Assembly: GCA_965117015.1 (NCBI GenBank)
Contig: OZ220747.1
Coordinates: 3,086,921 to 3,150,920 of the forward strand
DNA: 64,000 nt
From: Acidimicrobiales bacterium
GTDB lineage: Bacteria > Actinomycetota > Acidimicrobiia > Acidimicrobiales > Aldehydirespiratoraceae
Direction: 5' to 3'
Made by a program: the position numbers and the translations under genes. Shown piece after piece: positions 6,084 to 62,508 of this stretch (its first letter is position 1; each line of letters starts with the position of its first letter). Under the pieces are notes generated by a model. That model searched no databases. It had not been told where the DNA came from and worked only from the letters and a program-made list of their open reading frames with translations.

Positions 6084-6101
6084 GGCCAGAGCTTCGCAGA
6101 C

Positions 6102-6207
6102 GGGGCCGGGGCCGTCACGTCCGGTAGCTGCCGCGGACCGTCACGAGCCGAGGCGGGGCCGGGGCCGTCATCTCCCGAAGCAGCCGGGGACCGTCACGAG
6201 CCGACTA
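6102..6207. repeat. imperfect tandem duplication (2 x 53 nt) with CCGTCA recurring every 26-27 nt
   Basis: Copy 1 at 6102-6154 and copy 2 at 6155-6207 both begin GGGGCCGGGGCCGTCA and end GGACCGTCACGAGCCGA. Copy 2 contains the stop and last codons of the LLM oxidoreductase gene. Confidence 0.75.
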
Positions 6208-11687: not shown

Positions 11688-11814
11688 GGCTGCACCCTAC
11701 CGGCCGCTCCCCTTCTACTCGGGCGACTCACACGGCCGTCCCCGGCGTGGTGCGGCCAGCCGCCTATCCTGCGAATGCTCTTACAAACGGCGTGCACGGA
11801 AGGGGGTGGACGCG

Positions 11815-12849: not shown

Positions 12850-12858
12850 GATCGCAGG

Positions 12859-13662: not shown

Positions 13663-13717
13663 GGCCGGATCGTAGCGCCGACCGCTCAGGGGTTCGCCTG
13701 CGCCTGCCGCTGTGCGA

Positions 13718-19774: not shown

Positions 19775-19782
19775 GGCGTCTC

Positions 19783-22439: not shown

Positions 22440-22515
22440 GGTTCGCTCGCTTTCGAGTTCGGGAGGTTTGGTTGGAAGGCGGGAACGTTGAGCCGCTCCC
22501 TGGTGTCGTAATCGT

Positions 22516-24069: not shown

Positions 24070-25153
24070 TGATGTCCTCCACGGGGCGGTAGTCGAAGTC
24101 GTAGTTGAAGGCCCTGGGTCCGGCCACAGCCAGACCTTCAGGAGTGCGCCAGAGGCTGTCTATGGGCAGGCCCACGATGGAGACGAGCTGCCCGTAGCGC
24201 AGCAGCTCGGTGACGATGGGTCGGGCGGTGTGCAGGTCGACGGCGGTGATGATGTCGGGGACGCTGGCCCGCACTCTCCCGTCCTCGATCAATACGGTGT
24301 TCTCGTTCTGGAACTCGAGGCGAGCCACTCGCCCGCTGCATTCACCGATCCCCTCGACTACCGCGGATCCCCGGGCGAAGCCCTCGGTGGTCTGGCGGTC
24401 GACATCGACGACTTTGCCCTCGATGAGCGGGTAGCCGTCGAGGTGCTCGCACATGGCTGTCACGGGCTCGTCGGAGACTTCGAGCATCACTCGACCCGCC
24501 GTGATGGCGCGGGTTATCGAGTTCCTGACGGTGGCCCGCCGGGCAGTACCGACCGTCATCGGGTACAGGCAGATGGTGGCTTCGGCCCCCATGGTCGTGC
24601 ATACCGAGCGGGCGATGTCCTCGGCCCAGACCGCAGTGGTGGTGGTCAAGGTGACGACGTTGCCCCGCTCATCGGTCATCACTGCGGGCGTGGCCGGCAC
24701 TCCTGCTAGGTGCGCCGTGGTCATCTGGAGCTCGGGGAACGCCCGACCCATGAGATCGGCATCTACAACCGGGAGGTTGGCGCGTGCCGCCCACGAGAAG
24801 GGCACGACACCGTTCAGTCCCCCGAGCTCCAGACAACAGATGGCCGCCACTTGCATGCCGGTCTCGTTCTCGACGGCCTCCTGCAGGCGCTGCGCCTCGG
24901 TGCCGGCCCCGAACTTCTCGACCATGACCGTGGTCGCGCCCATCATGCAGATGGGCAGGATCAGGCGGTCGTCGTCCAACTCGTCCAGGTCGAGCAGTTG
25001 CACCGGCCCGGAGTGGGCGATGGCCTGCGACGCCATGTGATGGCCCAGCCGGGGATCACCCCCGCCGCCGGCTCCGAAGATCGCCGCGCCGAGGGAGAGC
25101 CACTCCAACTCTTGGGCCCCGATCTCTAGCACTGGAAGCGACCGTAGTCCCAC
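24059..25153 (-). CDS. DUF917 domain protein (paralogue 1)
   Basis: Contains LSLGAAIFGAGGGGDP and other DUF917-like features. Overlaps the hydantoinase start by 11 nt. Start placed at GTG 25153, because the ATG at 25228 lies inside the operator palindrome 6 nt from the divergent regulator start. Start uncertain. Confidence 0.7.
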   Translation of the reverse strand: MGLRSLPVLEIGAQELEWLSLGAAIFGAGGGGDPRLGHHMASQAIAHSGPVQLLDLDELDDDRLILPICMMGATTVMVEKFGAGTEAQRLQEAVENETGMQVAAICCLELGGLNGVVPFSWAARANLPVVDADLMGRAFPELQMTTAHLAGVPATPAVMTDERGNVVTLTTTTAVWAEDIARSVCTTMGAEATICLYPMTVGTARRATVRNSITRAITAGRVMLEVSDEPVTAMCEHLDGYPLIEGKVVDVDRQTTEGFARGSAVVEGIGECSGRVARLEFQNENTVLIEDGRVRASVPDIITAVDLHTARPIVTELLRYGQLVSIVGLPIDSLWRTPEGLAVAGPRAFNYDFDYRPVEDINAG

Positions 25154-25178
25154 TGGGACCCCGTGGAGCGGCTGTATT

Positions 25179-25223
25179 TGTGCATTAGTCAAGAGAGCTG
25201 GGCGATCTTGTGCATTATGCACA
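25179..25223. promoter_or_regulatory. operator candidates in a divergent promoter: perfect palindrome TGTGCAT-T-ATGCACA plus an upstream half-site
   Basis: TGTGCATTATGCACA at 25209-25223 (7-1-7 perfect inverted repeat). TGTGCATTA is repeated at 25179-25187, exactly 30 nt upstream. This is a low-GC island between the DUF917 and PucR-type genes. Confidence 0.6.
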
Positions 25224-25234
25224 TACATGCCAGG

Positions 25235-26719
25235 ATGTGGGCGGTGCTGTTGAGGGACCTCGTCGATCGCGATCCGTCAATCGCGGTCCTGCACGCTGCT
25301 CCGGCCGCGCTGAACCGTCCGCTGGCGTCGGTCCAGATGGTCGACGAGTACCCGGGCGTCGCGGCCGCCGGGCCCGGAGCGCTGGTGGTGCTTGCCCCGC
25401 ACCTGTCTGCCGACGCGGCGTCGTACCGATTCGACCTGGCCCTGGGAGAGCTGCCCGACGGGGTTGCCGGCCTGGCCCTGTCAGGCTCAGCGGGAGAGCC
25501 GTCGGCCACCGCGTTGCGTACCGCGGAGAACCGGGGTATCGCGCTGATCGCTCTGGATCCGGCCACCGATGTGGCCGCTCTCGCGGTGCGGGTACGGGAC
25601 GTGAGCCTCGGCGGGACCCGGGAGGCCGTGACCCGGCTGGAGACCATCTGCGCGATCGTTGACGCCTACGAATCGCGGGGCGAGCACGTCGACTCGCTGC
25701 TGGCCCGCCTGACGACGGAGCTCGAATGCGACATCAGCATCGAGACCGAGCCCGGAGACTCCCCCGCGGTCGCCCTGGACGCGGGCACGGGACAGCCGAC
25801 CTTCCTGGTGGCAGACGCCGAGATGTCTGACATCGTCGTGCGGACCGCGCTGGTCTATGCCGGCCGGGCCATCGAGCTGATCCTGCGTCGCGACTTCGAG
25901 GCCGCCAACTTCCCGGTGCAGTCGAGAGGCGACCTGCTCAACGAGTTCCTTCTCAGCGATGCGGCCACCGGCGCCGATGCCCTTGCCCGGCTCCGGCGCA
26001 GCGGGTTTCCGGTTGACGGTCACCACCTCGCGGCTCGGGTCGACCTGCACAATGTCGCCTCTGGGGTGAACGATGTCACCGACCGGTACCGCCGACAGCT
26101 GCAAGCGGCGCGGTTGCTCAGCGACCGCGTCTCCCAGGGTGACCCCTCCTGGACCGCGGCCGGCACCAACACCTCGGTGCTGCTGGTGATGAGCGAGCCA
26201 CGACGCGATGGTCGGCACTCAGCGATCCTCCAGGACCGGCTCCAGTCCGGCCTGGCCCGCCTCAACGCGCTTGACCCGGGCCTGGAGTGGGCGGCGGGCG
26301 TCGGCACCGTTCAGAGCGGCGCCGGCGGGCTGCGGAACACCGTCGACGAGGCGACGTCGGCGTTGCGGGCCGCCCAGGCCAACAACGCCTACAACCGCCT
26401 CCACCACTTCGATCGGCTCGGGTTCGCCAGGGCTTTGATCCGGTGGTACGAGATCGACGACGTCAGGGCAACGATCGACGAGATCCTGGCTCCCCTGGCC
26501 CGGCTGGGGGACAAGAACGCCGCCGAGGCGATCAACACCCTGCGCGCCTATCTGGACTCGGGCCAGAGCATTAAGCAGACCGCTCACCAGTTGCGCGTGC
26601 ACCGCAACACAGTGCGCTACCGCATCAAGCGCATCCTCGACGTGCTCGAAGTCGACCTCACCGATCCCGAACAGCGCCTCTTGGTGGAACTCGGCACTCG
26701 GGCAATGCGCATCTCATAA
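25235..26719 (+). CDS. PucR/CdaR family transcriptional regulator
   Basis: Trimmed to MWAVLLRDLVDRDPS. C-terminal HTH TLRAYLDSGQSIKQTAHQLRVHRNTVRYRIKRI is characteristic of the PucR C-terminal domain. Confidence 0.8.
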   Translation: MWAVLLRDLVDRDPSIAVLHAAPAALNRPLASVQMVDEYPGVAAAGPGALVVLAPHLSADAASYRFDLALGELPDGVAGLALSGSAGEPSATALRTAENRGIALIALDPATDVAALAVRVRDVSLGGTREAVTRLETICAIVDAYESRGEHVDSLLARLTTELECDISIETEPGDSPAVALDAGTGQPTFLVADAEMSDIVVRTALVYAGRAIELILRRDFEAANFPVQSRGDLLNEFLLSDAATGADALARLRRSGFPVDGHHLAARVDLHNVASGVNDVTDRYRRQLQAARLLSDRVSQGDPSWTAAGTNTSVLLVMSEPRRDGRHSAILQDRLQSGLARLNALDPGLEWAAGVGTVQSGAGGLRNTVDEATSALRAAQANNAYNRLHHFDRLGFARALIRWYEIDDVRATIDEILAPLARLGDKNAAEAINTLRAYLDSGQSIKQTAHQLRVHRNTVRYRIKRILDVLEVDLTDPEQRLLVELGTRAMRIS

Positions 26720-26740: not shown

Positions 26741-27517
26741 CTAGACGGTCAGCGAGGAGGCGAGCAGGCCTCGGGTGTATGGATGTTCGGGCTTGGCGAA
26801 CAGCTCCTCGACCGGCTGCAGTTCCACGATCTCACCGTCGCGCATGACCGCGATGCGATCGGCTAGGTGGCGGGCGACTCCAAGGTCGTGGGTGATGAAC
26901 AGGTAGGTGAGGCCGTGATCGGCCTTGAGTTGCCGCAGCAGGTTCAGGACACCGGCCTGCACCGACACGTCGAGAGCGGAGGTCGGCTCGTCGAAGATGA
27001 CCATCGCGGGCTCCAGCACCAGTGCCCGGGCGAGCACGGCCCGCTGGGCCTGGCCTCCGCTCAGCTCGTGCGGGAGGCGGTGGCGTATCGCTGCGCTGAG
27101 ATCGAGCGACGCGATCATCTCGTCGGCTCGCTGCCTGCACTGAGCCCGGCTCAATGCGGTGTGGACCCGCAGCGGCTCCTCGATCTGGGCTCCCACCGGC
27201 TGGCGGGGGCTGAGTGCGAGCAGTGGGTTCTGGGCCACCATCTGGACCGGGACGCGAGCCCTGCGGCTGGCTCGCCCCCGCAGGCTGGCGAGCTCGGTGC
27301 CGTCATATGTGATGCTGCCGCGGCTGGGTCGGACCAGGCCGACGACAGCCTCGGCGAGAGTCGACTTGCCCGCGCCCGACTCCCCCACCACAGCCAGCGT
27401 CTCGCCCCTGCCCACATCCAGGTCAAGGCCGTCGAACACCGTGACCGGATGCCTTCGGCCTCCACCCCGCGCGGAGAACTCGACCCGCAGGCCTCGTATG
27501 GAGAGCAGCGCGGTCAT
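26741..27517 (-). CDS. peptide/opine/nickel-type ABC transporter ATP-binding protein (DppF/OppF-like)
   Basis: 258-aa ORF. Walker A GESGAGKST, signature LSGGQAQR, Walker B MVIFDEPTSALD. Confidence 0.85.
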   Translation of the reverse strand: MTALLSIRGLRVEFSARGGGRRHPVTVFDGLDLDVGRGETLAVVGESGAGKSTLAEAVVGLVRPSRGSITYDGTELASLRGRASRRARVPVQMVAQNPLLALSPRQPVGAQIEEPLRVHTALSRAQCRQRADEMIASLDLSAAIRHRLPHELSGGQAQRAVLARALVLEPAMVIFDEPTSALDVSVQAGVLNLLRQLKADHGLTYLFITHDLGVARHLADRIAVMRDGEIVELQPVEELFAKPEHPYTRGLLASSLTV

Positions 27518-28476
27518 CTCGGGGGCCCCGGACGACCGTCAGGGGCAGTGCCATCAGAACCCACCAGGACGCAAGCCGCGTGGTGGCCAGGCTGCACGAG
27601 GCGCGCCTCGGGCTGGCCCGCCCAGCATGCGTCGCGGACGCGGGGGCAACGGGGTGCGAAGGCGCAGCCGTTGATGGCACTCCGGCCGTCAGGTACGAGC
27701 CCGGGGATCGAGGCCAGCTGCTGCCCCACCGTCTCAGGTCGGGGGATGGACTCGAGCAGAGCCTGCGTGTAGGGGTGGCTCGGCGCGGCCAGCACCTGAT
27801 CGGCCCGGCCGTCCTCCGCGACCTGGCCGGCGTAGAGCACGACGATGCGCTCGCACACCCGCCGCAGCACGGCTAGGTCGTGGCTGATGAGCACCACCGC
27901 CAGCCCGGTGCGGTCCCGGAGCTCCTCGATGAGGTCGAGCACCTGCAGCTGCGTGGTCACGTCGAGGGCGGTGGTGGGCTCGTCGGCGATCAGCAGCCGG
28001 GGCGACTGGGCCAGCGCCAGCGCGATCACAGCCCGCTGGCTCATCCCTCCGGAGAGTTCGTGCGGGTAGGAGGCGAGGAGCCGGGGTGCATCCGGCAGTC
28101 CGACCTGTTCGAGCAGCTCACCCAACACTGCGGGGTCGTCGGTCCCGGTTACGAGCCGGAGTTGCTGGCCGATGGTGAACACCGGGTTCAGCGAGGCGCC
28201 CGGGTTCTGGTAGATGAGCGCGGCCACGGATTGCAGCGAGCCGTCCATGGCCATGGGTTCGCCGCCGAAGTGCAGGCTGCCCTCCACGCGGGCGGTGTCG
28301 GGCAGCAGTCCCAGCAACGCGCGGAACAGCACGCTCTTGCCGCAGCCGGACTCGCCGGCCACCCCCACGATCTCGCCGTCGCCCACGTGAAGCGACACGC
28401 CCCTCACGGCCTGCACCGGCCCGGTCGGCGGGTTGAAGGTGACGTGCAGCCCCTCAGCCTCCAGCAGGCTGCTCAT
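27514..28476 (-). CDS. peptide/opine/nickel-type ABC transporter ATP-binding protein (DppD/OppD-like)
   Basis: Starts MSSLLEAEGLHVTF. Motifs GESGCGKS, LSGGMSQR, LLIADEPTTALD and a C-terminal Cys-rich tail. ATGA overlaps on both sides. Confidence 0.85.
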   Translation of the reverse strand: MSSLLEAEGLHVTFNPPTGPVQAVRGVSLHVGDGEIVGVAGESGCGKSVLFRALLGLLPDTARVEGSLHFGGEPMAMDGSLQSVAALIYQNPGASLNPVFTIGQQLRLVTGTDDPAVLGELLEQVGLPDAPRLLASYPHELSGGMSQRAVIALALAQSPRLLIADEPTTALDVTTQLQVLDLIEELRDRTGLAVVLISHDLAVLRRVCERIVVLYAGQVAEDGRADQVLAAPSHPYTQALLESIPRPETVGQQLASIPGLVPDGRSAINGCAFAPRCPRVRDACWAGQPEARLVQPGHHAACVLVGSDGTAPDGRPGPPR

Positions 28477-29402
28477 TCGCGGTCTTCCCGTGTGCGAGGG
28501 TCGGTGACGTCGCGGATCACGTCTCCCATCAGGTTGAAGGCCACCGCCGCGATCACGATGGCCGCTCCCGCGAAGCCGGCGATCCACCACTGCCCGGAGA
28601 GCACGTACTGGCGGCCTTCGGAGATCATCACGCCCCAGTCGGCGGTCGGCGGGCGTGGGCCGAGCCCCACGAAGCTCAGGCCGGCTGCAGTCAGCACGGC
28701 TGCGCCCAGATCAGCGGTGGCCTGCACCCAGACGGGTGCCATGGCGTTGGGAATGAGATGCACGGCGAGGATGCGCCGGTGGGGTATGCCGATGGCGCGC
28801 ACCGCCTTGATGAATGGCCGTTCGCGCAGGCTGAGGACCTGAGCGCGCACCAAGCGCGCGTACCACGGCCACCAAGAGACCGCTATGGCGATGATGGTGT
28901 TGCGGACGCTCGCTCCTAGCGCAGCCGCTACCAGCACCGCCAGCAACAACGGCGGGAAGGCCAGGAACGTGTCGGTGATCCGCATGAGGACCTCGTCGAC
29001 CCATCGCCCGAAGTAGCCCGCCACTGCGCCCACCACCACGCCGACGACCACCGACAGCACTACGACCCCGACCGCCACCACCAGGGCGGTGCGAGCCCCG
29101 AAGAGCAGCCGGGCCAGCACGTCGCGCCCCAGATCGTCGGTGCCCAACCAGTGTGACCAACTGGGGCCCTGCAGACGGATGGACAGGTCCGGAACGCCGC
29201 GGCCGGCATCGGCGTAGGGAGTGAGCCACGGAGCGAACACCGCGGCCACCCCAAAGAGCACGGCCACCACCGCGGCCGCCATCCCCAGCCAGCTTCTCCG
29301 GTAGTACCAGAACGCGCTGCCCGGCGCCGCGAAGCGGCTCGGCTTGCCGGCCACGCCCGAGAGGCCGAAACGACCCGCCTTTGGAGGTGCTTCGGTGCCC
29401 AT
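28473..29402 (-). CDS. ABC transporter permease (DppC/OppC-like)
   Basis: Starts MGTEAPPKAGRFG. Membrane protein with a DppC-like conserved loop (FIKAVRAIGIPHRRILAVHLIPN). Confidence 0.85.
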   Translation of the reverse strand: MGTEAPPKAGRFGLSGVAGKPSRFAAPGSAFWYYRRSWLGMAAAVVAVLFGVAAVFAPWLTPYADAGRGVPDLSIRLQGPSWSHWLGTDDLGRDVLARLLFGARTALVVAVGVVVLSVVVGVVVGAVAGYFGRWVDEVLMRITDTFLAFPPLLLAVLVAAALGASVRNTIIAIAVSWWPWYARLVRAQVLSLRERPFIKAVRAIGIPHRRILAVHLIPNAMAPVWVQATADLGAAVLTAAGLSFVGLGPRPPTADWGVMISEGRQYVLSGQWWIAGFAGAAIVIAAVAFNLMGDVIRDVTDPRTREDRE

Positions 29403-30484
29403 CAGTCCAGAGCCACCCTGGGATCGAGCCGGGCCTGCAGCAGGTCGAGGCCAAGGTTGACCAGCACGTAGATCACGGTGACGGCCAGCGCCGCCGCGGT
29501 GATGACCGGGAAGTCCAGCCGCACGACCGCGTCGGTGAGGTACTTGCCCAGCCCCGGCCATGCGAACACCGCTTCCACCAGGAACGCACTCGACACCGAG
29601 TAGGCAAACGTGAGACCCAGCACGGTCAGGGTGGGCAGCAGCGCGTTCTTCAGCGCTAGGCGCCGGAGCACCGTGCGCCTGGGTATCTGGGCCACGGTGG
29701 CGGCCTCTATGTAGTCGCTGCCGAGCACCTCCAGCATCGATCCCCGGATCAGCCGGATGGTGAGCCCCAGTGGGTAGGCGGTCATCACGGCCACCGGCAT
29801 GGCGAGATGCACGACGACATCCGCGAAGTTCGACCAGCTCCCCGATAGCGCGGAGTCGATCAGGAAGAAGCCGGTCGGCTCGTTGAAGCTGGTGGATGAG
29901 TCGGTGCGGCCCGCCAGTGGCAGCCAGCCCAGCCGGGAGGCGAACAGCAGTTGGAGCAGCAGCGCCGACCAGAAGACCGGCAGCGACACACCCGTCACGG
30001 CGAACAGCCGGATGGAGGTGTCCCCCAACCGGCTCCGGCGGGCCGCGGCGGCCACCCCGGCCGGGACGCCCACCGCCATGGCCAACGCGGTCGCAGCCAG
30101 CGCTAGCTCCAGGGTGGCCGGCAGGAACCGGCGGAGATCCTCGGCGATCGGACGCTTGGTGGCGAACGACACGCCGAGATCGCCCCGGGCAAGCTGACCC
30201 ACGTAGGACGCGTACTGCGACAGCACGGGGGCATCGAGGTTCAGATCCCGGCGCACCTGCTCGACCTGCTCGGGCCGGGCCCTGACTCCGGCGTACAGCG
30301 CGGCGGGATCCGATGGCACCAGCCTGGCCACCACGAAGGTGACGGTGATCACGCCGAGGATCACCAGCAGGCTGGTGACCACCCGGCGCAGCAGGTAGCG
30401 GGATCTGATCAGCCCGGTGCGCTGCTGAGATGGAGCGCTGCTGGGTGTCTGCTCGGTCAAGCGTTGGCTTGGATCAGCTTCCAC
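29402..30484 (-). CDS. ABC transporter permease (DppB/OppB-like)
   Basis: 360-aa ORF. YLLRRVVTSLLVILGVITVTF is the typical DppB N-terminus. An alternative TTG start at 30460 would form a TTGA overlap with the upstream stop. Confidence 0.8.
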   Translation of the reverse strand: MEADPSQRLTEQTPSSAPSQQRTGLIRSRYLLRRVVTSLLVILGVITVTFVVARLVPSDPAALYAGVRARPEQVEQVRRDLNLDAPVLSQYASYVGQLARGDLGVSFATKRPIAEDLRRFLPATLELALAATALAMAVGVPAGVAAAARRSRLGDTSIRLFAVTGVSLPVFWSALLLQLLFASRLGWLPLAGRTDSSTSFNEPTGFFLIDSALSGSWSNFADVVVHLAMPVAVMTAYPLGLTIRLIRGSMLEVLGSDYIEAATVAQIPRRTVLRRLALKNALLPTLTVLGLTFAYSVSSAFLVEAVFAWPGLGKYLTDAVVRLDFPVITAAALAVTVIYVLVNLGLDLLQARLDPRVALD

Positions 30485-31920
30485 AGTGCTTCGATGTGTG
30501 CCCGGGTCGTCCAGATCGAGCCCACCGCGACGCGAACGTAGCGTCGCTCGTCGACCTCGGACCCGGTCACGTAGAAGCGACCGTCAGAGTTGATGGTGTC
30601 GATCAGCGCGTCGGTGGCCGCGTTGCCGTCACCATGGGCGAAGGGAACCATGGCGAAGGGCACTGGAGCGATCAGGTCGAGCCGGGGGTGCAAGTCGATT
30701 CGGGCTGCCAGCGTCCGGGCCCACGCGACCTGGGACCGGATCATCTTGCGCAGCCCCTCGGCACCGAAGGAGCGCAGCACGAACCACAGCTTCAACGCCC
30801 TGAAGGGTCGGCTAAGGGGCAGGTGCCAGTCCCGGTAGTCGATGACCGCGCCCGAAGCCGACGCCTGGTTGCGCAGATAGGGCGGCTGCACGCTGAGCGT
30901 GTCGATGAGCGGGCGACGGTCGGGCACCCACATCACCGAGCAGCCCACGTTGGTGGCCAGCCACTTGTGGGGGTTGAACGTGTAGCTGTCGACCAACTCC
31001 AGCCCGTCCTGGTGGTGGCGGAACTCCTCACAGATCATGGCTGAGCCCGCATAGGCGGCGTCGACGTGGTGCCACATCCCCGTGGACCGTGCGATCTCGC
31101 CGAAGGCGCGTACCGGATCCACTCCGGTGGTGCCGGTGGTGCCCAGCGCCGAGCACACGAATGCGGGCTCGAGGCCGGCTCGGCGGTCTGACGCGACCGC
31201 CGCAGCCAATGTCTCGGGTCTCACCGAGAACACCTCGTCGGTGTCAAGCAGCCTGATGTGCTCGTAGCCGGCTACCCGTGCGCCCTTCTCGATCGAGGAA
31301 TGGGCCTGGTCGGATGTGTAGGCCACCATCTTCTCGATGGGCACGCCGGTGCGCTTACGGCACTGGTCGCGGGCCACCACCAGCGCGGTGTGGGTAGACG
31401 ACGAGGCCCCCGACAGGAGCACTCCGCCCCCACGCGACGTGGCCTTCCACTGCTGAGGCAGATCCAACAGATCGACCAGCCAGTCCAGGACGTGGGACTC
31501 GATCTCGGTCGCCGCCGGCGACGTGGACCACATCATCGTTTCCACGGAGATGCCGGCTGCGGCAAGCTCGCCGAGCACCGCGGCCGGTGAGGAGGCCGCG
31601 GGGAAGTACGCCAGCCATCCGGGGTGCTGCCAGTGGGCCAGCGACGGCGTGACAACCCCATCAAGGTCGTTTAGCAGGGCTTCGAACGGCTCCGGATGCT
31701 CCGGCGCCCGGGCTGGGAGCTTGGCTCGCACTGCGCCGGGTTCGATCGGCTTGTACACGGGCACGGAGTTGAGCCCGCGGTAGTAGTCGCTCACCCAGTC
31801 GATGAGGGCGTGCCCGTTACGCCGAAAGGCCTCGATGTCGAGCGGGTCGGTCGACGGCGACGGATCGTGCGGACCGGCAACACCGCCCTGGAGGGTGGGG
31901 TACTGCAGGCTCTTAGCCAT
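30457..31920 (-). CDS. pyridoxal-dependent (group II) decarboxylase, aromatic-L-amino-acid decarboxylase-like
   Basis: 487-aa ORF. HWQHPGWLAYFPA, HVDAAYAGSA and the NPHKW PLP-lysine motif are typical of DDC/tyrosine-decarboxylase-like enzymes. Confidence 0.85.
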   Translation of the reverse strand: MAKSLQYPTLQGGVAGPHDPSPSTDPLDIEAFRRNGHALIDWVSDYYRGLNSVPVYKPIEPGAVRAKLPARAPEHPEPFEALLNDLDGVVTPSLAHWQHPGWLAYFPAASSPAAVLGELAAAGISVETMMWSTSPAATEIESHVLDWLVDLLDLPQQWKATSRGGGVLLSGASSSTHTALVVARDQCRKRTGVPIEKMVAYTSDQAHSSIEKGARVAGYEHIRLLDTDEVFSVRPETLAAAVASDRRAGLEPAFVCSALGTTGTTGVDPVRAFGEIARSTGMWHHVDAAYAGSAMICEEFRHHQDGLELVDSYTFNPHKWLATNVGCSVMWVPDRRPLIDTLSVQPPYLRNQASASGAVIDYRDWHLPLSRPFRALKLWFVLRSFGAEGLRKMIRSQVAWARTLAARIDLHPRLDLIAPVPFAMVPFAHGDGNAATDALIDTINSDGRFYVTGSEVDERRYVRVAVGSIWTTRAHIEALWKLIQANA

Positions 31921-33073
31921 GGCTGCCGCCGGTCCCCACGAGTTCCTCTATGGGGACGTAGGGGATGCCGAAGCCGAAGTAGCCGGGGCCCGACGCGCTG
32001 GTCAGGGTCTGCGGCTCCCGCATGACGTCCAGACCTCTCATTCCGACGGCCACTACCTCGTCACCCATCCGGATTTCGGTGTTGGTGTAGCCCCGGCCGT
32101 TTCCCGGGTTCACCATCGTCACCAGGTCGGGGCTGCACACCCAGGGCTCGCCGTCCAGCCAGGTGACATGGATCTCGTTCTTGAACCACGCCCGCAGCGA
32201 GTGGCCCGAGGAGCGTTCCGTGCCCGTGATGTCCATGGTGCCGACCATGAAGCCGCCCGAGTCCTGCCACCTCTTGCCGGTGACGACACCCTCGAACAGG
32301 CGCCACCCGCCGGCGACCTCCAGCGCGGCGTCCGTCGGGTCCGCTCCCTCGGCGGCCGCGAGCCGGCAGGCCCGACCGATCTCCAGGCATCGGGTGAGCG
32401 TGCCGGGAACCAGTATCTCCTTCATCCGCTGGGCGCGGATGGCGGTCGAGGCCACCGAGGTGCCGGTGATGCCGGCCATGGACAGGTGGCGCCCGACCCG
32501 CTCGAGCATGTACGAGTTGGCCGTTCTGGCCACGATCGTCGTGTTGCCCCACCGGTCCACCGACGCGAACGGGTCGCTGGCCACGCCGTAGACGTGCGGA
32601 GTGCTCTGCATCTCCTCGGGAACCGCTCGTCCCGAGTAGTCGCCGTCCACTACCGGGATGCCGAGTCGGGCCGCCACCACCAGCGGGGCCGGTGAGTTGT
32701 AGGCGCCGAGTTCTGAGACGACGATGCACCCGATCGGCTCGCCGAGGTGTTCCGCCAGCACGCCCACCGCCTCCTGCATGCCCTGCTCTTCCGATCTCGG
32801 CTTCGCATCGAGGTGCATCGCCCGCAGCAGGGCGTCCTGGTCGGTGGGCGGCGCGATAGAGCCCATGCCGTACACCATGGCCGTGAGGGTGTCGTCGCTG
32901 ATGAGGTCCTTGTCGCTCCATCCGAGATCTAGGCCTTCGGCGAGAGCGGCCTCCAGGATGGCTGCCCCCATGGCGGGGTCACCGCCCCCGCCGGTGGACA
33001 TGAACCGGCACCCGTCGATGAAGTCGACGCAGTCCTCGACGGACGTGAGGGTTCGGGCCTTCGGGATGTTCAT
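31913..33073 (-). CDS. DUF917 domain protein (paralogue 2)
   Basis: 386-aa ORF. N-terminus FIDGCRFMSTGGGGDP parallels the GAGGGGDP of paralogue 1. 8-nt overlap with the decarboxylase start. Confidence 0.75.
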   Translation of the reverse strand: MNIPKARTLTSVEDCVDFIDGCRFMSTGGGGDPAMGAAILEAALAEGLDLGWSDKDLISDDTLTAMVYGMGSIAPPTDQDALLRAMHLDAKPRSEEQGMQEAVGVLAEHLGEPIGCIVVSELGAYNSPAPLVVAARLGIPVVDGDYSGRAVPEEMQSTPHVYGVASDPFASVDRWGNTTIVARTANSYMLERVGRHLSMAGITGTSVASTAIRAQRMKEILVPGTLTRCLEIGRACRLAAAEGADPTDAALEVAGGWRLFEGVVTGKRWQDSGGFMVGTMDITGTERSSGHSLRAWFKNEIHVTWLDGEPWVCSPDLVTMVNPGNGRGYTNTEIRMGDEVVAVGMRGLDVMREPQTLTSASGPGYFGFGIPYVPIEELVGTGGSHG

Positions 33074-33127
33074 CGATCCGGGCGGGCTGGTGGGCGCGGC
33101 GATGCTCGGCGTTGGCCTGCGGTCGCG

Positions 33128-34828
33128 TCAGCCGGCGAGGCGCAGGTCGTGGAACCGCACCATCTGGCTGTACGCCGGGTTCGAGACGAAGCCGGAGTAC
33201 TTGGCGTTGATCACGTCGACGGTGGGGACGTCCAGCATGAACACGCCGGCGTTCTCGTCGACCAGGATCCTCTGGGCCTCCTGGAACATCTCGACGGCCG
33301 CTGCCTGGTCGGTGCCGCTGACGGCATCCGCGTCGACGATCAGCGTGTCGAACGTCTCGTTGGAGAAGTATCCGAGGTTGAAGAACGGTTCATCCTCGGA
33401 ATGGAACGTCGAGAACAGGAAGTCGAAGGGCGTGACGTAGGTCGGGAACCAGAACATGGTGAAGATGTCCTGAGCCCCCTCCGGGTCGGCCTGCGCCTTC
33501 TGCCAGCGGGCGTCGAACGTCAGAGGCTCGAGCACTAGGTCCACGCCGATGGTGGCCAGGTTCGCCTTCCACACCTCGCCGATCTGCTGTTGCTCGGTGG
33601 TGCCGGCGTCGTAGCTGTAGACGAGGGACAGGTCTGTCGCCCCGACGGCCTCGAGGATCGCTCTCGCCCGGTCGAGGTCGGTCTGGGGGAGGTCCAGGTC
33701 GGGGTCGAAGCCCCATACGGTCGCCGGGATCATCCCGTGGGCCCGTGAGCCCTGGCCGCCGTACAACGCGTCAGCCACATCGTCGTAGGGGAACGACAGC
33801 ACGACGGCCTCACGCACCTCAGGAGACAGGCGGCGGTGGTTGAGCATCCCGAAGAGGTTCGTCATCGACGGCCCGCTGATCACCTCGACGCCCGGCACCT
33901 GGCCGAGGGCGGGATAGACGTCGAAGGGCAGGTTGAAGGTGTAGTCGGCCTCGCCGTCCCGGATGAGCTGTTCGGCGAGGACCGGATCCTCGATCAGTCG
34001 GAACTCGGCGATGTCGACCTGCCCGTCCTCCCATCCTCCCCAGTAGCCGTCGAAGCGGACGAGGGTGGTGCTGCCGGACGGGTCGTGGGACTCGATCGTG
34101 TAGGGCCCAGTGCCGGCGCCGTTGCCCTGGTTGAACCACGCGGCGTCCTGGAGAGCCGAGTCGGGGCTCACGATGTACACCGCGAAGCCGGCCGACATGA
34201 TGATGTCGAGTGGCGCCGGCCACGCCAGGTTGAACGTGATCGTCAACTCGTCCTCGACAGCCATCGACTCGATGGGCAGGAGCATGAAGGACGCACCCAG
34301 GCCGAGGTCGATGGTGCGCTGCAGGGAGCCGCGGACGGCTTCGGCGGTGAGGGGCGCACCGTCGTGGAAGTTCACGCCCTCACGGAGGTTGAAGGTCCAC
34401 ACGGTGGCGTCGTCGTTGGATGTCCATGATTCGGCCAGAACGCCGACCAGTTGCTCGGACGCGGGGGCCTCGGGGTCGTCGAGCCGGGTCAGGGTCTCGT
34501 AGACGTTCTGCAGCAGGATGTGCTCCGACGAGAAGGCGCTGGCCGGGTCGAGGTCGGTGAACGAGTAGGGGTTGGCGTACACGAACCGGGTCTCGGCCGC
34601 GGGTGCGGCCGCCTCAGAGTCGGTGGCTTCGGGCTCGGTCGTCTCGGGGGCAGTGTCGGCGGTGTCGGCGTCCGTGGTGGCCGCTTCGGTCGTTGCAGTC
34701 TGGGAAGTCTCCGACTCGCTCACCCCGGCATCGGTACTGGCGGGGCTGCCATCATTCGCTCCGTCGGAGCACGACATCGCCATCAGCGCGATGGCTGCAG
34801 CAACCAGGATCTGCGTCTTCAACCTCAT
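33128..34828 (-). CDS. ABC transporter substrate-binding lipoprotein (family 5, peptide/opine/nickel type) with acidic linker
   Basis: 566-aa ORF. Signal peptide with lipobox MAMSC, about 55 aa of T/E/A/D-rich linker, then a family-5 SBP body. RBS GGAGAGGAG lies upstream. Confidence 0.85.
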   Translation of the reverse strand: MRLKTQILVAAAIALMAMSCSDGANDGSPASTDAGVSESETSQTATTEAATTDADTADTAPETTEPEATDSEAAAPAAETRFVYANPYSFTDLDPASAFSSEHILLQNVYETLTRLDDPEAPASEQLVGVLAESWTSNDDATVWTFNLREGVNFHDGAPLTAEAVRGSLQRTIDLGLGASFMLLPIESMAVEDELTITFNLAWPAPLDIIMSAGFAVYIVSPDSALQDAAWFNQGNGAGTGPYTIESHDPSGSTTLVRFDGYWGGWEDGQVDIAEFRLIEDPVLAEQLIRDGEADYTFNLPFDVYPALGQVPGVEVISGPSMTNLFGMLNHRRLSPEVREAVVLSFPYDDVADALYGGQGSRAHGMIPATVWGFDPDLDLPQTDLDRARAILEAVGATDLSLVYSYDAGTTEQQQIGEVWKANLATIGVDLVLEPLTFDARWQKAQADPEGAQDIFTMFWFPTYVTPFDFLFSTFHSEDEPFFNLGYFSNETFDTLIVDADAVSGTDQAAAVEMFQEAQRILVDENAGVFMLDVPTVDVINAKYSGFVSNPAYSQMVRFHDLRLAG

Positions 34829-34854
34829 TGGGATCTCCTCTCCAGGATGTGACC

Positions 34855-34940
34855 GGTGTGGTAAAAAACATTTAGCATATATCGCTAGTTACTGCAAATC
34901 TTTTACCATAATGCCGATATATCTGTATGATCTTGCAAGA
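34855..34940. promoter_or_regulatory. AT-rich divergent control region between the SBP operon and the Lrp-type regulator gene
   Basis: Conspicuously low-GC stretch (AAAAAACATTTAGCATATATCGCTAGTTACTGCAAATCTTTTACCATAATGCCGATATATCTGTATGATCTTGCAAG) in an otherwise GC-rich window. Contains the palindrome CTTGCAAG. Confidence 0.45.
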
Positions 34941-35050
34941 GAACGCTGCGAGTCGGCGGCCTTGCGCGCTAGATGCCAGCCGTGAGAAGATCGCCCTTCC
35001 GGTCCCGTTGCCCGACCCCATGGCAACCGTAGAAGCGAGAGGTTCGTAGC

Positions 35051-35545
35051 TTGGAGCTAGACGACCTAGACCTCGACATCGTTCGGATTCTCAGCGACGA
35101 CGGCAGGGCCAGCTACAGCGAGATGTCCAAGGCGCTGGGCGTCAGCGTCGGCACGGTCCGGAACCGGGTAAACCAGATGCGGGACACCGGCATGCTGTAC
35201 TTCAACGTCTGGCTGGACCCGCACCGGTCTGGCATCGGCGTCATCGCCACGTTGCTCTTGAAGGTGCAGGCGGGATGCCTCCCGGAAGTGACGTCGACGC
35301 TGATCGATCTGGTCGAGACCGGATACGTCGCCACCCTGGCGGGCGAACACGATGTACTTACGGACGTCTTCTGCCGGGACGCGTTTCATCTCAGCCGTCT
35401 GGTACACGATGAGATCCAGACCATCGAGGGCGTTATCGAGGTCCGCTGCTACCTCGTTACCGACATCAAGTACGAGTCCAGCCTCAACATCCGGAGCGTG
35501 ATCAACAAGTCGGGCGAGTCAGGCAGCGTCAGCGGCGAAGTCTGA
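35051..35545 (+). CDS. Lrp/AsnC family transcriptional regulator
   Basis: 164-aa ORF with TTG start. LDLDIVRILSDDGRASYSEMSKALGVSVGTVRNRV is the Lrp/AsnC N-terminal HTH. Confidence 0.8.
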   Translation: MELDDLDLDIVRILSDDGRASYSEMSKALGVSVGTVRNRVNQMRDTGMLYFNVWLDPHRSGIGVIATLLLKVQAGCLPEVTSTLIDLVETGYVATLAGEHDVLTDVFCRDAFHLSRLVHDEIQTIEGVIEVRCYLVTDIKYESSLNIRSVINKSGESGSVSGEV

Positions 35546-35561: not shown

Positions 35562-36755
35562 TCAGGTCCCGGAACCGCTCCATGGGACTCGGGGCAGTTG
35601 CTTCTCCTTGTCCACGAACGGAACGGTCTCGACGGTGGCCGCGTGGGGCGTTCCGTTGCAGTCGTGCAGCCGGACCGTCTTGCCGTTCCAGTCGTCGCCC
35701 GGCAACGGCTGGTCGAAGCGCACGTAGCCGATGCCGGCGTCGAGCGTCGGCGACCACGATCCGGCGGTCATGTGGCCCACCGGGCCGCCGTCGAAGTGGA
35801 CGTTCAGGCCGGCTTCCGGCGTGGCGGTGGCGCAGACCAGGCCGAACAGCAGCTGGCTGCGGTCGGCGGTCTCCAGCGCGTCCCGGCCGATGAAATCGCC
35901 CTTGTCGAGCTTGACGAACTGCCCGAGACCGGCACCGTAAGGCGTGAGGCCCGCCTCGATGTCGCTTCCGTTGTCGAGGATCCCGGACTCGATGCGCCGG
36001 ATGCCCATCGACGACGACGAGCTGAACTCCATCCCGAACCGCTCCCCGCAGGCGAACAGGCCGTCCCAGAGGGCGTCGTGGTCGGTGGGCTCCGGGCCGC
36101 TGTTGCAGTAGATCTCGATCCCCGCCTCCCCCGTCCACCCGGTGCGGGACACCCACAGACGTTGGCCGCACACGTCGAAGAAGCCGGCGTGGAAGTACTT
36201 GAAGTCCTTCGACAGCCCGCCGCCTATGGCCGCGTCGAGCACATGGAGCGACTTCGGTCCCTGGATCTGCAGCACCCGCGAGTGGGGGTCGCGCACCTCG
36301 ACGTCGAGGCCGATGGCGTGAGCCTCGAGCCAGCTCTCGAACTCGCCGTTGGCCTTGACGTACATGTACCGGTCCTCGGCCAGGCGCATGACCACGCCAT
36401 CCATCAAGATGGTGCCGTCGTCGTGGCAGGCCAGGCCGTAGCGGCCCCGCCCGACTGGAAGGGTCTCGGTCCGGCAGGTGAGCACCCGCTCGAGCAGCCG
36501 GCCGGCATCGGGTCCGACGATCTCGACCGGCTTCTCCGGGACGTCGTACAGCATCACGCCGCGGCGCAGCTTCCAGTAGTTGGGGATGGGGTCCTCGTCG
36601 CGGGAGGTCTTGAGGGGATAGAGGCGGTTGCAGTACATGCCGAAGACCGTCTGATCGGTCACGTACCGGTCGGCGAACGGAGACTGCCCGATACGGAACG
36701 CGCTCAACTGGACGGTGCCGAACGACTCGACGTAATAGTGCCTGTCCCCGGTCAT
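35562..36755 (-). CDS. aminomethyltransferase (GcvT) family protein, DmdA/GcvT-like
   Basis: C-terminal 397 aa of track ORF 35562..37736, starting MTGDRHYY after RBS GAGGT. GcvT-fold features are present (LYDVPEKPVEIVGPDAGRLLERV, VSRTGWTGEAGIEIY). Confidence 0.8.
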   Translation of the reverse strand: MTGDRHYYVESFGTVQLSAFRIGQSPFADRYVTDQTVFGMYCNRLYPLKTSRDEDPIPNYWKLRRGVMLYDVPEKPVEIVGPDAGRLLERVLTCRTETLPVGRGRYGLACHDDGTILMDGVVMRLAEDRYMYVKANGEFESWLEAHAIGLDVEVRDPHSRVLQIQGPKSLHVLDAAIGGGLSKDFKYFHAGFFDVCGQRLWVSRTGWTGEAGIEIYCNSGPEPTDHDALWDGLFACGERFGMEFSSSSSMGIRRIESGILDNGSDIEAGLTPYGAGLGQFVKLDKGDFIGRDALETADRSQLLFGLVCATATPEAGLNVHFDGGPVGHMTAGSWSPTLDAGIGYVRFDQPLPGDDWNGKTVRLHDCNGTPHAATVETVPFVDKEKQLPRVPWSGSGT

Positions 36756-36762
36756 GGATACC

Positions 36763-36774
36763 TCAAGCGCTTGA
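36763..36774. promoter_or_regulatory. 12-bp perfect palindrome in the divergent promoter
   Basis: TCAAGCGCTTGA lies between the GcvT-like start (36755) and the Rieske oxygenase start. Confidence 0.35.
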
Positions 36775-36821
36775 TGGGCCGGCTCAGGGTAGCCACCCAA
36801 CCCGTGTGCAACGATTGGGGC

Positions 36822-38183
36822 ATGGTCGACACCGCACCCCCGGACGAGGCCGAGATCCTCGGCACTGCCGTCACGGCCTCGGGTCTGGCCGCGGAGGCCC
36901 CGGTGAGGGTCCCGGTCGAGCGCTACATCTCGGCCGGGTTCGCCGAGCTCGAGCACGCCAGGCTGTGGCCCAGGGTGTGGCACGTGGCCTGCACCGTCGA
37001 CCACGTCGCCAACCCGGGCGACTGGTTCGAGCACCGCCTCGGCCGGTGCTCGGTGCTGCTGGTGCGGGGCGACGACGGCGTGCTGCGCGGCTTCCAGAAC
37101 GTCTGCCGCCACCGGGGCAACACCATCTGCCAAGGCTCGGGATCCGGCGCGACCGAGCTTCGCTGCCCGTATCACCGCTGGGCCTGGGATCTGGCCGGCC
37201 GGTTGCGCGAGGTTCCGTCGCGGCGAGGCTTCGGCCCGCTGCGCAACGACGAACTGGGGTTGGTGCCGGTGCAGGTGGACACTTGGACCCGTCTGGTGTT
37301 CGTGAACCTGGACCTCGACGCCGAGCCGCTGGACGGCTGGCTGGAGGGCGTCCCCGACGACATCGCCTGGGCCAATCTGGACGAGTTCCGGTGCGACTAC
37401 TCCACCATCACCCCGGTCAACTGCAACTGGAAGGTGGTCAACGAGGGCTTCTCGGAGACCTACCACGTCCAGGGCCTGCACCGCGAGATGTTGGCCAGCA
37501 TCGACGACGTCAACGCGCCCCAGAGGATCTGGGACCGCCACAGCGCGTCCTACCAGGCCTACGGCGTGCCCAGCCCGCGCCTGGGTCGCAACGTGGACGA
37601 CCAGGTGGTGTGGGACTCGTTCGTGATGACCGAGGGCGGGCGCATGGGACCGGAGTACCGGGAGCCCTGCGAGGCGCCCGACGTGCCCGACGGCCTGACT
37701 CTCCGGGACGTGATCGCTCAGAAGATCCGCGACCACCAGGCCACGCTCGGGGTGGACCTGTCGGGCTACGACACCGCCCAGATCATGAGCCTCAGCCAGT
37801 TCAACCTGTTCCCCAACGCCACCGTGCTGGTCAGCGCCGACCTGTTCACCGTGATGACGGCACGGCCCGGCCCCACCCCCGACGAGGGCGAGTTGGCCAT
37901 CATCAACCTCCGCCGTATGCCGTCGGCCGAGGCCCCGGCCTCACCGCCGGTTCACCTCACCGTGCCCCTCGACAAGGCCGACTTCGGGTTCGTGCTCAAC
38001 CAGGACCTCAGCGTGATCCGCACCATGCAGAACGGCCTGCGCCAGCCCGGGCTGTCCCACGTGGTGCTGTCGGGCGAGGAGTGCCGGATCATCAACATGC
38101 ACCGCCACCTGGAGCAATACCTGGGCCTCGAACCCGGCGGCTGGGAACCGGTCGGGCCGGAAGCGAGTCCGTCGCTGGTGTAG
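36822..38183 (+). CDS. Rieske (2Fe-2S) aromatic-ring-hydroxylating-type oxygenase alpha subunit
   Basis: Rieske motif CRHRGNTIC...CPYHRWAW and catalytic-domain motif NWKVVNEGFSETYHVQGLH. Start at MVDTAPPDE; the ATG at 36774 is an alternative. Confidence 0.8.
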   Translation: MVDTAPPDEAEILGTAVTASGLAAEAPVRVPVERYISAGFAELEHARLWPRVWHVACTVDHVANPGDWFEHRLGRCSVLLVRGDDGVLRGFQNVCRHRGNTICQGSGSGATELRCPYHRWAWDLAGRLREVPSRRGFGPLRNDELGLVPVQVDTWTRLVFVNLDLDAEPLDGWLEGVPDDIAWANLDEFRCDYSTITPVNCNWKVVNEGFSETYHVQGLHREMLASIDDVNAPQRIWDRHSASYQAYGVPSPRLGRNVDDQVVWDSFVMTEGGRMGPEYREPCEAPDVPDGLTLRDVIAQKIRDHQATLGVDLSGYDTAQIMSLSQFNLFPNATVLVSADLFTVMTARPGPTPDEGELAIINLRRMPSAEAPASPPVHLTVPLDKADFGFVLNQDLSVIRTMQNGLRQPGLSHVVLSGEECRIINMHRHLEQYLGLEPGGWEPVGPEASPSLV

Positions 38184-40762: not shown

Positions 40763-43503
<2,741 letters not shown>

Positions 43504-48349: not shown

Positions 48350-48383
48350 GGCTGGTCGGGCTGCGGCAGTTGGGGCGAGGCCT

Positions 48384-59874: not shown

Positions 59875-59911
59875 GTGGCCCTCCGATCACCGCGACCCGG
59901 CATGGCCATCA

Positions 59912-61075: not shown

Positions 61076-61093
61076 GGGTGCTCGCTCCCCGCC

Positions 61094-61924: not shown

Positions 61925-61952
61925 CGACGGTCTCCTCCTCTCGGGTTGCTTC

Positions 61953-62477: not shown

Positions 62478-62508
62478 ACCAGTCTGAGTACCACAGATCG
62501 ATCCGCGA

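Follow-up and report, generated by a model that had tools for sequence, protein, structure and literature searches.

The described systems closest to the locus analyzed here are the Dpp/Opp/Nik importers (PepT family, TC 3.A.1.5), enzymes of the DUF917 family, the aromatic-L-amino-acid decarboxylases (AAADs) of eukaryotic type, and gene clusters that contain cyclodipeptide oxidases (CDOs). The dipeptide-binding protein DppA of E. coli clamps the termini of its ligand with Arg355 and Asp408. DUF917 is a large family for which, to our knowledge, only two activities have been named, and we know of essentially no genes for the degradation of cyclic dipeptides. CDO clusters that are not of the cyclodipeptide synthase (CDPS) type are enriched in DUF917, hydantoin-racemase-like proteins, Dpp/Opp transporters and peptidases; Giessen and co-workers (Nat Commun 2024, PMC11055893) assign no function to such clusters and call DUF917 uncharacterized. 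Here, we describe a seven-gene locus at positions 26741-34828 of a 64-kb stretch of DNA from an Acidimicrobiales bacterium (contig OZ220747.1; the whole stretch is referred to below as the window) in which a Dpp/Opp-type importer is combined with a DUF917 protein, denoted DUF917b, and an AAAD.

Orthologs of the importer occur in Acidimicrobiia as well as in Chloroflexota, and its most constant enzymatic partner is DUF917b, so that the conserved core consists of the importer and DUF917b rather than of DUF917b and the decarboxylase. The function that we tentatively favor, at slightly less than an even chance of being correct, is the uptake of an amino-acid derivative that is peptide-like and probably cyclic; it would be hydrolyzed by DUF917b, with the AAAD decarboxylating the released aromatic amino acid.

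Organization of the operon

The genes for a family 5 solute-binding protein (SBP), DUF917b, the AAAD, two permeases (DppB and DppC) and two ATPases (DppD and DppF) follow one another on the minus strand, and a gene for an Lrp/AsnC regulator diverges from them (Table 1). This layout, proposed in an earlier note made from the DNA sequence alone, agrees with the open reading frames (ORFs), the Pfam assignments and the junctions between the genes, and the uptake operon is confirmed as real and conserved. The same gene order is found again in independent genomes, which shows that the arrangement is not due to chance. By Pfam, the pairs of permeases and of ATPases with oligo_HPY domains correspond to the make-up of a Dpp/Opp (PepT family) importer; in DppF, only the first 25 positions of oligo_HPY are kept, and DppF products of the same length, 258 aa, are encoded in loci L080, L088 and L089. 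The gene layout also supports the proposal of a single operon for a dedicated importer with embedded cytoplasmic enzymes.

The G+C content of the window is ~68-70%, and the G+C content at third codon positions (GC3) of the seven ORFs is 0.84-0.90. The longest ORF of dppC (28473-29561) falls outside the GC3/GC2 filter, and the internal ATG at 29402 was taken as the start. When re-read from the sequence, the junctions comprise a gap of 54 nt between the SBP and DUF917b genes, an overlap of 8 nt between the DUF917b and AAAD genes, TTGA (or 28 nt with a GTG start) between the AAAD and dppB genes, and ATGA at both the dppC/dppD and dppD/dppF boundaries. The list of junctions given earlier stands except for dppB/dppC, where the stop codon of dppB and the start codon at 29402 have 1 nt in common, in TGATG rather than ATGA. 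The true start of dppB is uncertain, with TTG 30460, GTG 30484 and GTG 30382 as candidates; in the near-identical assembly L087, an independent gene call gives the same genes with the dppB start 75 nt further downstream. No terminator-like site was found within the seven-gene operon.

Two deviating gene structures were observed. In L087 (5x coverage), dppC and dppD are fused into one ORF of 613 aa. In a single Poriferisodalis lineage, that of L081/L082 (6818-14588), each of the genes for the SBP, the AAAD and DppC is broken into at least two ORFs, reflecting either operon decay or frameshift errors in long reads.

The conserved importer module and its variable enzyme slot

Orthologs of DUF917b were sought in one genome per GTDB species, which yielded 79 loci with orthologs at 50-81% identity, and the gene neighborhoods were characterized by tblastn with the window proteins and by unbiased clustering of all neighbor ORFs. 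The SBP5-DppBCDF set adjoins DUF917b in most of these loci, in both Chloroflexota and Acidimicrobiia. The most frequent neighbors are ABC ATPases (52 loci), NicX/M29-like proteins (47), SBP5 (46), DppC (41) and DppB (40), followed by the hydantoin-racemase-like Asp_Glu_race family and the nitroreductase-type CDO-A (23 each), the DUF6092 family CDO-B (20), M20 peptidases (8), Lrp (7) and the AAAD (5). Of the 77 informative loci, 41 have a NicX-like gene as the next gene downstream of DUF917b, and another 12 have one at a different place in the locus. The usual order in Chloroflexota is SBP-B-C-D-F-DUF917b, with no decarboxylase; in the clade of Candidatus Aldehydirespirator and Candidatus Poriferisodalis, both of which belong to Acidimicrobiales, it is a divergent Lrp gene followed by SBP-DUF917b-(enzymes)-BCDF. 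The closest named locus, L001 from a Candidatus Aldehydirespirator species, shows full synteny with the window operon at 81-93% protein identity, and those of Candidatus Poriferisodalis come next. We take both candidate genera to be sponge-associated.

The earlier note regarded enzymes placed within a Dpp operon as unusual. Among importers of the present family, such enzymes are the norm: Asp_Glu_race proteins are present in 23 loci, as counted above, and in L083 (Anaerolineales) two of them are encoded between dppB and dppC, the full order being DppB, two Asp_Glu_race, DppC, DppD, DppF, DUF917b, NicX-like, CDO-A, CDO-B and a second NicX-like protein. The racemase-like pair of L083 occupies 5514-7042, and the part from DUF917b to the second NicX-like gene 11143-14075. 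Two to four adjacent DUF917 paralogs are present in L025, L013, L021, L028, L031, L033, L035 and L043; L035 encodes HyuA, DUF917a and DUF917b in a row behind a Dpp-type transporter. A tblastn search detected no NicX-like, CDO or racemase gene in the 64-kb window and no M20 gene near the operon; for CDO-A and CDO-B (PF19585), searched with six representatives each, there was no match in the window at E<1e-5. Both CDO families occur in 20-23 of the orthologous loci from Chloroflexota.

The decarboxylase is a lineage-specific insertion into the importer operon. Within the operon, it is confined to Acidimicrobiia, namely Candidatus Aldehydirespirator, relatives of Poriferisodalis and one TARA scaffold. 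The slot between the SBP and dppB genes holds DUF917b alone in L004; DUF917b and the AAAD in the window, L001, L003, L005 and the TARA scaffold L088; DUF917b, a Sacchrp_dh family protein and the AAAD in L007; DUF917b, an aldehyde dehydrogenase, Sacchrp_dh and the AAAD in L006 and L080; and the AAAD alone, with no DUF917, in L089. DUF917b is further found beside the orthologous importer, with no AAAD, in L010 and in all ~70 Chloroflexota loci. Since variants carry either enzyme alone, DUF917b and the AAAD are independent, separable add-ons, and the obligatory two-step chemistry of DUF917 and decarboxylase envisaged earlier is not supported. The transporter of L089 is as close to that of the window (SBP 68%, DppB 86%, DppC 82%) as those of the DUF917b-containing Poriferisodalis operons, and L089 is a paralogous locus, the genome of which appears also to carry DUF917b and a second operon-type AAAD. 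The arrangement in L089 (3027-14114) is M20 and NicX-like genes, Lrp, and then SBP-AAAD(S370)-DppBCDF-Pro_dh.

The additional genes in the slot are lysine-catabolic. In L080 (11161-13775) and L006, two such genes lie between DUF917b and an AAAD with Asp at the specificity position discussed below, and L007 has the second of them only. The aldehyde dehydrogenase of L080 and L006 is an L-piperidine-6-carboxylate dehydrogenase equivalog (743 against a cut-off of 730 bits). The Sacchrp_dh protein of the Poriferisodalis operons has PH1688 (3ABI) as its best solved relative; we take PH1688 to be an L-lysine dehydrogenase, and the gene probably encodes a lysine 6-dehydrogenase. To the left of the Lrp gene, the Poriferisodalis loci and L089 contain NicX-like and M20 dipeptidase-like genes, and PutA or Pro_dh is encoded nearby. 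Because the slot and its flanks hold genes for the catabolism of aromatic amino acids, lysine and proline along with peptidase-like genes, a peptide-like cargo is indicated.

The solute-binding protein

The signal peptide of the SBP ends in AMSC (Cys20) and is followed by a Thr/Glu/Ala-rich linker, suggesting that the protein is probably a lipoprotein. All NCBIfam equivalog models score far under their cut-offs (NikA 112 of 600 bits, GsiB 104 of 594, DppA 52.5 of 1005), and the closest relatives in PDB are 5U4O, AapF (7KZ8) and GsiB (1UQW), at E~1e-30. When the SBP is compared with 8Z1Z and 1DPP, Asp and Thr appear at the positions of Arg355 and Asp408 of E. coli DppA, a tentative mapping given the low identity. 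Neither the equivalog score nor, under this tentative mapping, the clamp residues of a dipeptide-specific DppA are seen, which may hint away from ordinary dipeptides; the hint is weak because sequence identity is low.

These features bear on a more ordinary interpretation, namely that the operon serves di- and oligopeptide nutrition, with cleavage by M20/M29-like enzymes, disposal of aromatic residues by the AAAD, and DUF917b acting on an unrelated minor substrate. This is possible, if on the unlikely side. It would accommodate the variants with one enzyme only (L004, L089), the M20 dipeptidase-like and NicX/M29-like genes that flank the regulator in relatives, and the proline- and lysine-catabolic genes in or beside their operons. 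However, the SBP is far from all DppA/OppA equivalogs and appears to have no equivalents of Arg355 and Asp408, an unrelated enzyme would hardly be expected to be as constant a partner across two phyla as DUF917b is, and linear peptides need no cyclodipeptide-oxidase or hydantoin-racemase-like neighbors.

The best NCBIfam matches of the SBP and the permeases are of the nickel type (Opp5A_nikA, 112 bits; Opp2C, 272.6 bits against a cut-off of 300; weak CntA/CntC matches) and raise the question of a Nik/Cnt-like importer of a metal or metallophore (nickel, opine-type), the chelator of which the enzymes would modify or recycle. We consider this highly improbable, in that every score is below its cut-off, genes resembling those for CntKLM or nicotianamine synthase are absent, the regulator belongs to the amino-acid-type Lrp proteins and not to the metal sensors, and the embedded enzymes (AAAD, lysine and proline catabolism) are amino-acid-catabolic. 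Import of nickel or a metallophore was rejected on the sub-cut-off scores and the wrong enzyme context.

The DUF917 protein

DUF917b belongs to its family with 118.6 and 144.6 bits for PF06032 and PF20906 (cut-off 27); it is stand-alone, with no HyuA partner in the operon. Against the two NCBIfam thiohydantoin desulfurases (NF058529, NF058532), it scores 31.2 and 46 bits, where the cut-offs are 440 and 450, and DUF917a, the paralog encoded in the neighboring operon, reaches 72.8 and 92.1 bits, also below these cut-offs. The two paralogs are 28% identical and have in common the motifs GGGG, E121/N126 (E-x-G-x-x-N), D143-x-D145-x-x-G-R-A-x-P and N299-E300. Five cysteines (C15, C22, C116, C229, C313) are invariant or nearly so in DUF917b orthologs and absent from DUF917a; they may have a catalytic or metal-binding role and mark a subfamily.

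By analogy with the named enzymes, the reaction of DUF917b should be the hydrolysis of a small amino-acid-derived heterocycle. Catabolism of ergothioneine or S-methyl-ergothioneine was considered and rejected, both DUF917 proteins being far under the desulfurase cut-offs; the Pfam annotation of the ~50 called ORFs of the window contains no ergothionase and no thiourocanate-hydratase/urocanase-like genes. The AlphaFold2 (AF2) model of DUF917b (pLDDT 91.9) has a single Foldseek match in PDB, the uncharacterized 2O3I (E=9e-21, TM 0.74), and none to an amidohydrolase-type or HyuB-type hydantoinase. DUF917 has been stated to be a hydantoinase by structure (PMC11055893); because the model matches only 2O3I, this proposal finds no support in solved structures, and we did not adopt it.

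The decarboxylase

The AAAD matches solved plant and animal enzymes over its full length (6EEI, 1.4e-128; PsTyDC 6EEM, 4.4e-118; pig DDC 1JS3, 2.1e-107; human HDC 4E1O, 1.7e-101), and the residues expected of the family, namely K319 that binds pyridoxal phosphate (PLP) in N-P-H-K, the stacking H207 and D287 at the pyridine nitrogen, are invariant in 130 AAAD homologs. Both lines bear out the earlier assignment to this enzyme type. Judging from these residues, the protein is a catalytically complete aromatic-L-amino-acid decarboxylase that belongs to a transporter-linked clade of paralogs. Its catalytic-loop residue Y348 aligns with the Tyr of PsTyDC, as opposed to the Phe of AtPAAS (6EEI) and Rr4HPAAS (6EEQ). 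Because Tyr rather than Phe occupies this switch position, the enzyme should decarboxylate and not deaminate oxidatively; aldehyde-synthase activity was rejected on the same residue.

The substrate pocket is less telling. In the alignments, S370 is matched by Ser in the two Tyr/DOPA decarboxylases and by Gly in AtPAAS (6EEI). We take this specificity position to correspond to Gly354 of pig DDC, Ser354 of human HDC, Ser372 of PsTyDC and Gly370 of CrTDC. Ser370 would be compatible with either phenolic or imidazole substrates. The residue is Ser in the clade of the window and in the sister clade that includes L089, and Asp in the Poriferisodalis operon copies; a stand-alone AAAD paralog of the same genomes, encoded next to an APH kinase, an old-yellow-enzyme-type reductase and an HpcH aldolase, has Gly. 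The equivalent of Thr82 of DDC does not discriminate between Tyr and His specificity, since it is Ala in nearly all 130 homologs. By the placement and pocket inspection called for in the earlier note, the protein is an AAAD of the DDC/TyDC/HDC type in a transporter-linked clade, with a Ser370 that leaves tyrosine and histidine unseparated. In L090 (6535-9419), a member of the superclade that holds the operon copies, with Gly at the specificity position, immediately follows the gene for a biopterin-dependent aromatic amino-acid hydroxylase, and an Lrp gene is divergent there. This compact hydroxylase-decarboxylase pair supports free aromatic amino acids as substrates.

An enzyme of this kind could also make the operon a device for the production of biogenic amines, with tyramine-, dopamine- or histamine-like products formed from imported precursors, for instance in the interaction with a sponge host. 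The nearest named relatives are Candidatus Aldehydirespirator and Candidatus Poriferisodalis (their sponge association being assumed, as above), the AAAD is a paralog with a changed specificity residue, and Pfam reveals no amine-oxidizing enzyme in the operon of the window. We nevertheless find such a role quite improbable: exporters or antiporters for amines are missing from the operon, an open-ocean TARA scaffold carries this operon too, and the slot of the relatives gains catabolic dehydrogenases.

The neighboring DUF917a-HyuA operon and the rest of the window

An independent operon that encodes DUF917a, a HyuA-like ATPase and an importer with a CUT2-type SBP lies next to the Dpp operon (Table 1). 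The gene for its PucR-family regulator converges on dppF, diverges from the DUF917a operon and is part of the neighboring module. No Hydantoinase_B domain (HyuB/CapB) was identified by Pfam in this operon, so it does not encode a HyuA/HyuB hydantoinase pair. In 66 of 80 metagenome loci (soil, sediment, human gut), DUF917a is followed directly by the HyuA-like gene, with DUF917a relatives at no more than 59% identity, a comparison that addresses the DUF917a-HyuA pairing and not synteny among near relatives. DUF917a and HyuA are an obligate gene pair, and DUF917a may substitute for the B subunit of ATP-dependent lactamases, which is missing here. The pair alone is conserved in the 80 loci, CUT2, PucR and AAAD genes showing no co-conservation with it.

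The earlier note combined the two operons into a ~16-kb two-importer locus. They adjoin each other in L001 and the near-identical L087; the only further cases are two Chloroflexota loci that encode a DUF917a-like protein at 45% identity next to the importer, one with a HyuA-like gene (L035) and one with none (L076). In the six loci of the Poriferisodalis clade, the DUF917a-HyuA operon is absent within 10 kb of the Dpp operon, and each operon has its own regulator, Lrp or PucR. Co-conservation of the two was rejected on locus comparisons from both DUF917 sides; the two-importer locus does not stand as a unit and consists of two modules side by side that have one protein family in common.

These comparisons bear on a hydantoin route that would run over both operons, with import of 5-(arylmethyl)hydantoins or N-carbamoyl amino acids, ring opening by DUF917a-HyuA and/or DUF917b, decarbamoylation and decarboxylation. 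In its favor, the named DUF917 enzymes act, by their NCBIfam names, on thiohydantoin rings, the HyuA-like ATPase shares homology with hydantoinase, oxoprolinase and caprolactamase alpha subunits, the operons are adjacent in the window and L001, and benzylidene-hydantoin alkaloids are recorded for sponges in reference 54, as cited in PMC11055893. We judge the route improbable all the same. The operons are not co-conserved and have separate regulators; no N-carbamoylase is encoded beside either of them, the sole M20 gene of the window (59912-61075) being unrelated and located ~25 kb off in a second transporter cluster; the modeled structure of DUF917b does not resemble known hydantoinases; and the DUF917a operon is served by a sugar-type CUT2 importer.

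Elsewhere, the window encodes methylated-amine catabolism (35562-38183 and 45863-49883), with a GcvT-like aminomethyltransferase gene diverging from that of a Rieske/Ring_hydroxyl_A oxygenase and with DAO-GCV_T (DMGDH-like) and MttB-family genes further on, as well as amino-acid catabolism including a kynureninase. A Fur-family regulator followed by a catalase-peroxidase (KatG-like, peroxidase domain) is encoded at 40763-43503, and a BPD_transp_2-ABC_tran fusion of 616 aa, the M20 peptidase, an alpha/beta hydrolase and a Peripla_BP_4 SBP at 58024-63771.

Table 1. Genes of the importer operon, its control region and the neighboring operon (positions in the window).
Feature	Positions	Strand	Assignment
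SBP_bac_5 solute-binding protein	33128-34828	minus	Pfam PF00496, E=3.5e-67, 227.6 bits (cut-off 32.4)
DUF917b	31913-33073	minus	Pfam S-Me-THD_N and S-Me-THD_C, E=3.5e-34 and 2.9e-42
AAAD (group II PLP decarboxylase)	30457-31920	minus	Pfam Pyridoxal_deC PF00282, E=9.4e-96, 321 bits
DppB-type permease	29402-30460/30484	minus	Pfam BPD_transp_1_N and BPD_transp_1
DppC-type permease	28473-29402	minus	Pfam OppC_N and BPD_transp_1
DppD-type ATPase	27514-28476	minus	Pfam ABC_tran and oligo_HPY (C-terminal domain); NCBIfam
DppF-type ATPase	26741-27517	minus	Pfam ABC_tran; 258 aa
Divergent control region	34829-35050		222 bp, AT-rich; sequence reading and alignment with L001
Lrp/AsnC regulator	35051-35545	plus, divergent from operon	Pfam HTH_AsnC-type and AsnC_trans_reg
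Neighboring operon	18776-25228	minus	Independent module; Pfam
DUF917a	24059-25132/25228	minus	Pfam
HyuA-like ATPase	22516-24069	minus	Pfam Hydant_A_N and Hydantoinase_A; weak CapA similarity
CUT2-type SBP	21285-22439	minus	Pfam
ATPase	19783-~21300	minus	Pfam
Permease	18776-~19750	minus	Pfam
PucR-family regulator	25163-26719	plus	Pfam HTH_30 and GGDEF_2; L001 ortholog 80%

The regulator and the control region

The regulator has the N-terminal HTH_AsnC domain and the C-terminal RAM/AsnC_trans_reg domain of the Lrp/AsnC family by Pfam, and its ortholog keeps the same position in L001, L002-L007, L080 and L088. In the spacer between the divergent genes, a perfect palindrome, TCTTGCAAGA (34931-34940), lies in a block conserved with Candidatus Aldehydirespirator L001, and two further blocks, TAAAAGATTTGCA (34893-34905) and TGCTAAATGT (34868-34877), are also common to the L001 spacer. 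These three blocks can be considered candidate Lrp operators. A promoter-like site is located on the plus strand at 34902-34931, and the ribosome-binding site GGAGAGGAGA is found upstream of the ATG of the SBP gene.

Proposed function

In the reading that we prefer, the operon would encode an Lrp-controlled, substrate-dedicated Dpp/Opp (PepT) importer, with amino-acid-processing enzymes plugged in between the SBP and permease genes. The lipoprotein SBP would capture the ligand for import by DppBCDF, after which cytoplasmic DUF917b would hydrolyze it. DUF917b would most plausibly act on a cyclic amide, either a cyclic dipeptide (2,5-diketopiperazine) or a 5-substituted hydantoin or imidazolone, because the only named DUF917 enzymes act on 5-substituted thiohydantoin rings and because genes for cyclodipeptide oxidases and for hydantoin-racemase-like and NicX/M29-like proteins are the usual neighbors of DUF917b. 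Peptidases, whether general or linked to the system, would next liberate the amino acids, of which the AAAD (Tyr348, Ser370) would decarboxylate the aromatic one (Tyr/DOPA-like, possibly His) to an amine that might be catabolized further or released as a biogenic amine, and the Lrp regulator would probably respond to the amino acid. Both enzymes, DUF917b and the AAAD, would serve one import stream with no mutual dependence.

Several observations weigh against this scheme. The window and L001 both have no NicX-like, CDO, racemase or M20 partner genes near the operon, so that the case for a cyclic substrate is borrowed from distant orthologs. DUF917b scores ~10-fold under the cut-offs of both named DUF917 enzymes and its fold match is uncharacterized, and therefore its reaction type is extrapolated. 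L089, with no DUF917b, and L004, with no AAAD, show that neither enzyme needs the other. The operon AAAD of L088 has Gly370, hence Ser370 is not obligatory, and, as far as the alignments indicate, Ser370 does not distinguish a tyrosine-type from a histidine-type specificity. All operon copies of the AAAD fall into one superclade, apart from the stand-alone paralog, in a neighbor-joining tree without support values. Finally, the substrates proposed for the components come from sequence and gene context and are unproven.

A bolder version, which we rate as unlikely, would make DUF917b the missing hydrolase for 2,5-diketopiperazines and related cyclic derivatives and SBP5-DppBCDF-DUF917b(-NicX-like) a widespread, hitherto undescribed uptake-catabolism system, coupled in the acidimicrobial lineages with sponge-associated genera as their nearest named relatives to a neofunctionalized AAAD that would yield a tyramine-, dopamine- or histamine-type amine.

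Significance

No characterized pathway with this gene set was found in the literature on DUF917, thiohydantoin desulfurase and diketopiperazine hydrolase, which is consistent with the earlier statement that its chemistry matches no known pathway; the only related text is the passing remark in the CDO paper (PMC11055893). The core module has been noticed before with no explanation, and the arrangement with the AAAD, the separability of the enzymes and the Gly/Ser/Asp series are new details. The locus offers a testable candidate, the importer with DUF917b, a comparative framework of a core module with a variable enzyme slot, and a natural Gly/Ser/Asp specificity series among bacterial AAADs of a transporter-linked clade. 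If the proposed substrate class is correct, hundreds of Chloroflexota and Acidimicrobiia loci would gain an annotation, and marine, possibly sponge-associated bacteria would be linked to the formation of biogenic amines; if the diketopiperazine reading holds, these loci would represent an uptake-catabolism system for abundant microbial and marine metabolites. Should the importer be generic for peptides, the locus would be a tidy but ordinary operon variant.

Comparison with known systems

With the Dpp/Opp/Nik systems, such as DppABCDF and GsiABCD of E. coli, the window operon shares the five components and their Pfam families. It differs from them in an SBP that is below every equivalog cut-off and appears to have no Arg355/Asp408 clamp, in the two enzyme genes between the SBP and permease genes, and in the truncation of DppF to 258 aa.

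The (S-methyl) thiohydantoin desulfurases of ergothioneine catabolism and DUF917b share the Pfam family and the two-domain fold, and the invariant motifs are common to DUF917a and DUF917b, whereas the score of DUF917b (31/46 against 440/450 bits) and the annotated ORFs of the window, which include no ergothionase or thiourocanate hydratase, set it apart; from DUF917a, it differs by the five nearly invariant cysteines. For the ATP-dependent HyuA/HyuB and CapA/CapB enzymes, the comparison concerns the neighboring operon only, which shares the HyuA-like domains and a weak similarity to CapA but has DUF917a as the partner in place of a B subunit.

The AAADs of eukaryotic type (pig and human DDC, plant TyDC and TDC, human HDC) are homologous to the window enzyme over the full length and have the PLP-binding Lys, the His, the Asp and the loop Tyr in common with it; the window enzyme, in contrast, is bacterial and encoded in a transporter operon, with Ser at the specificity position and Asp or Gly in sister clades. 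Lastly, the Chloroflexota orthologs of DUF917b are found in exactly such non-CDPS CDO clusters as have been described (PMC11055893), whereas the window, with no CDO-A/B, racemase or NicX-like gene in 64 kb, has the AAAD instead.

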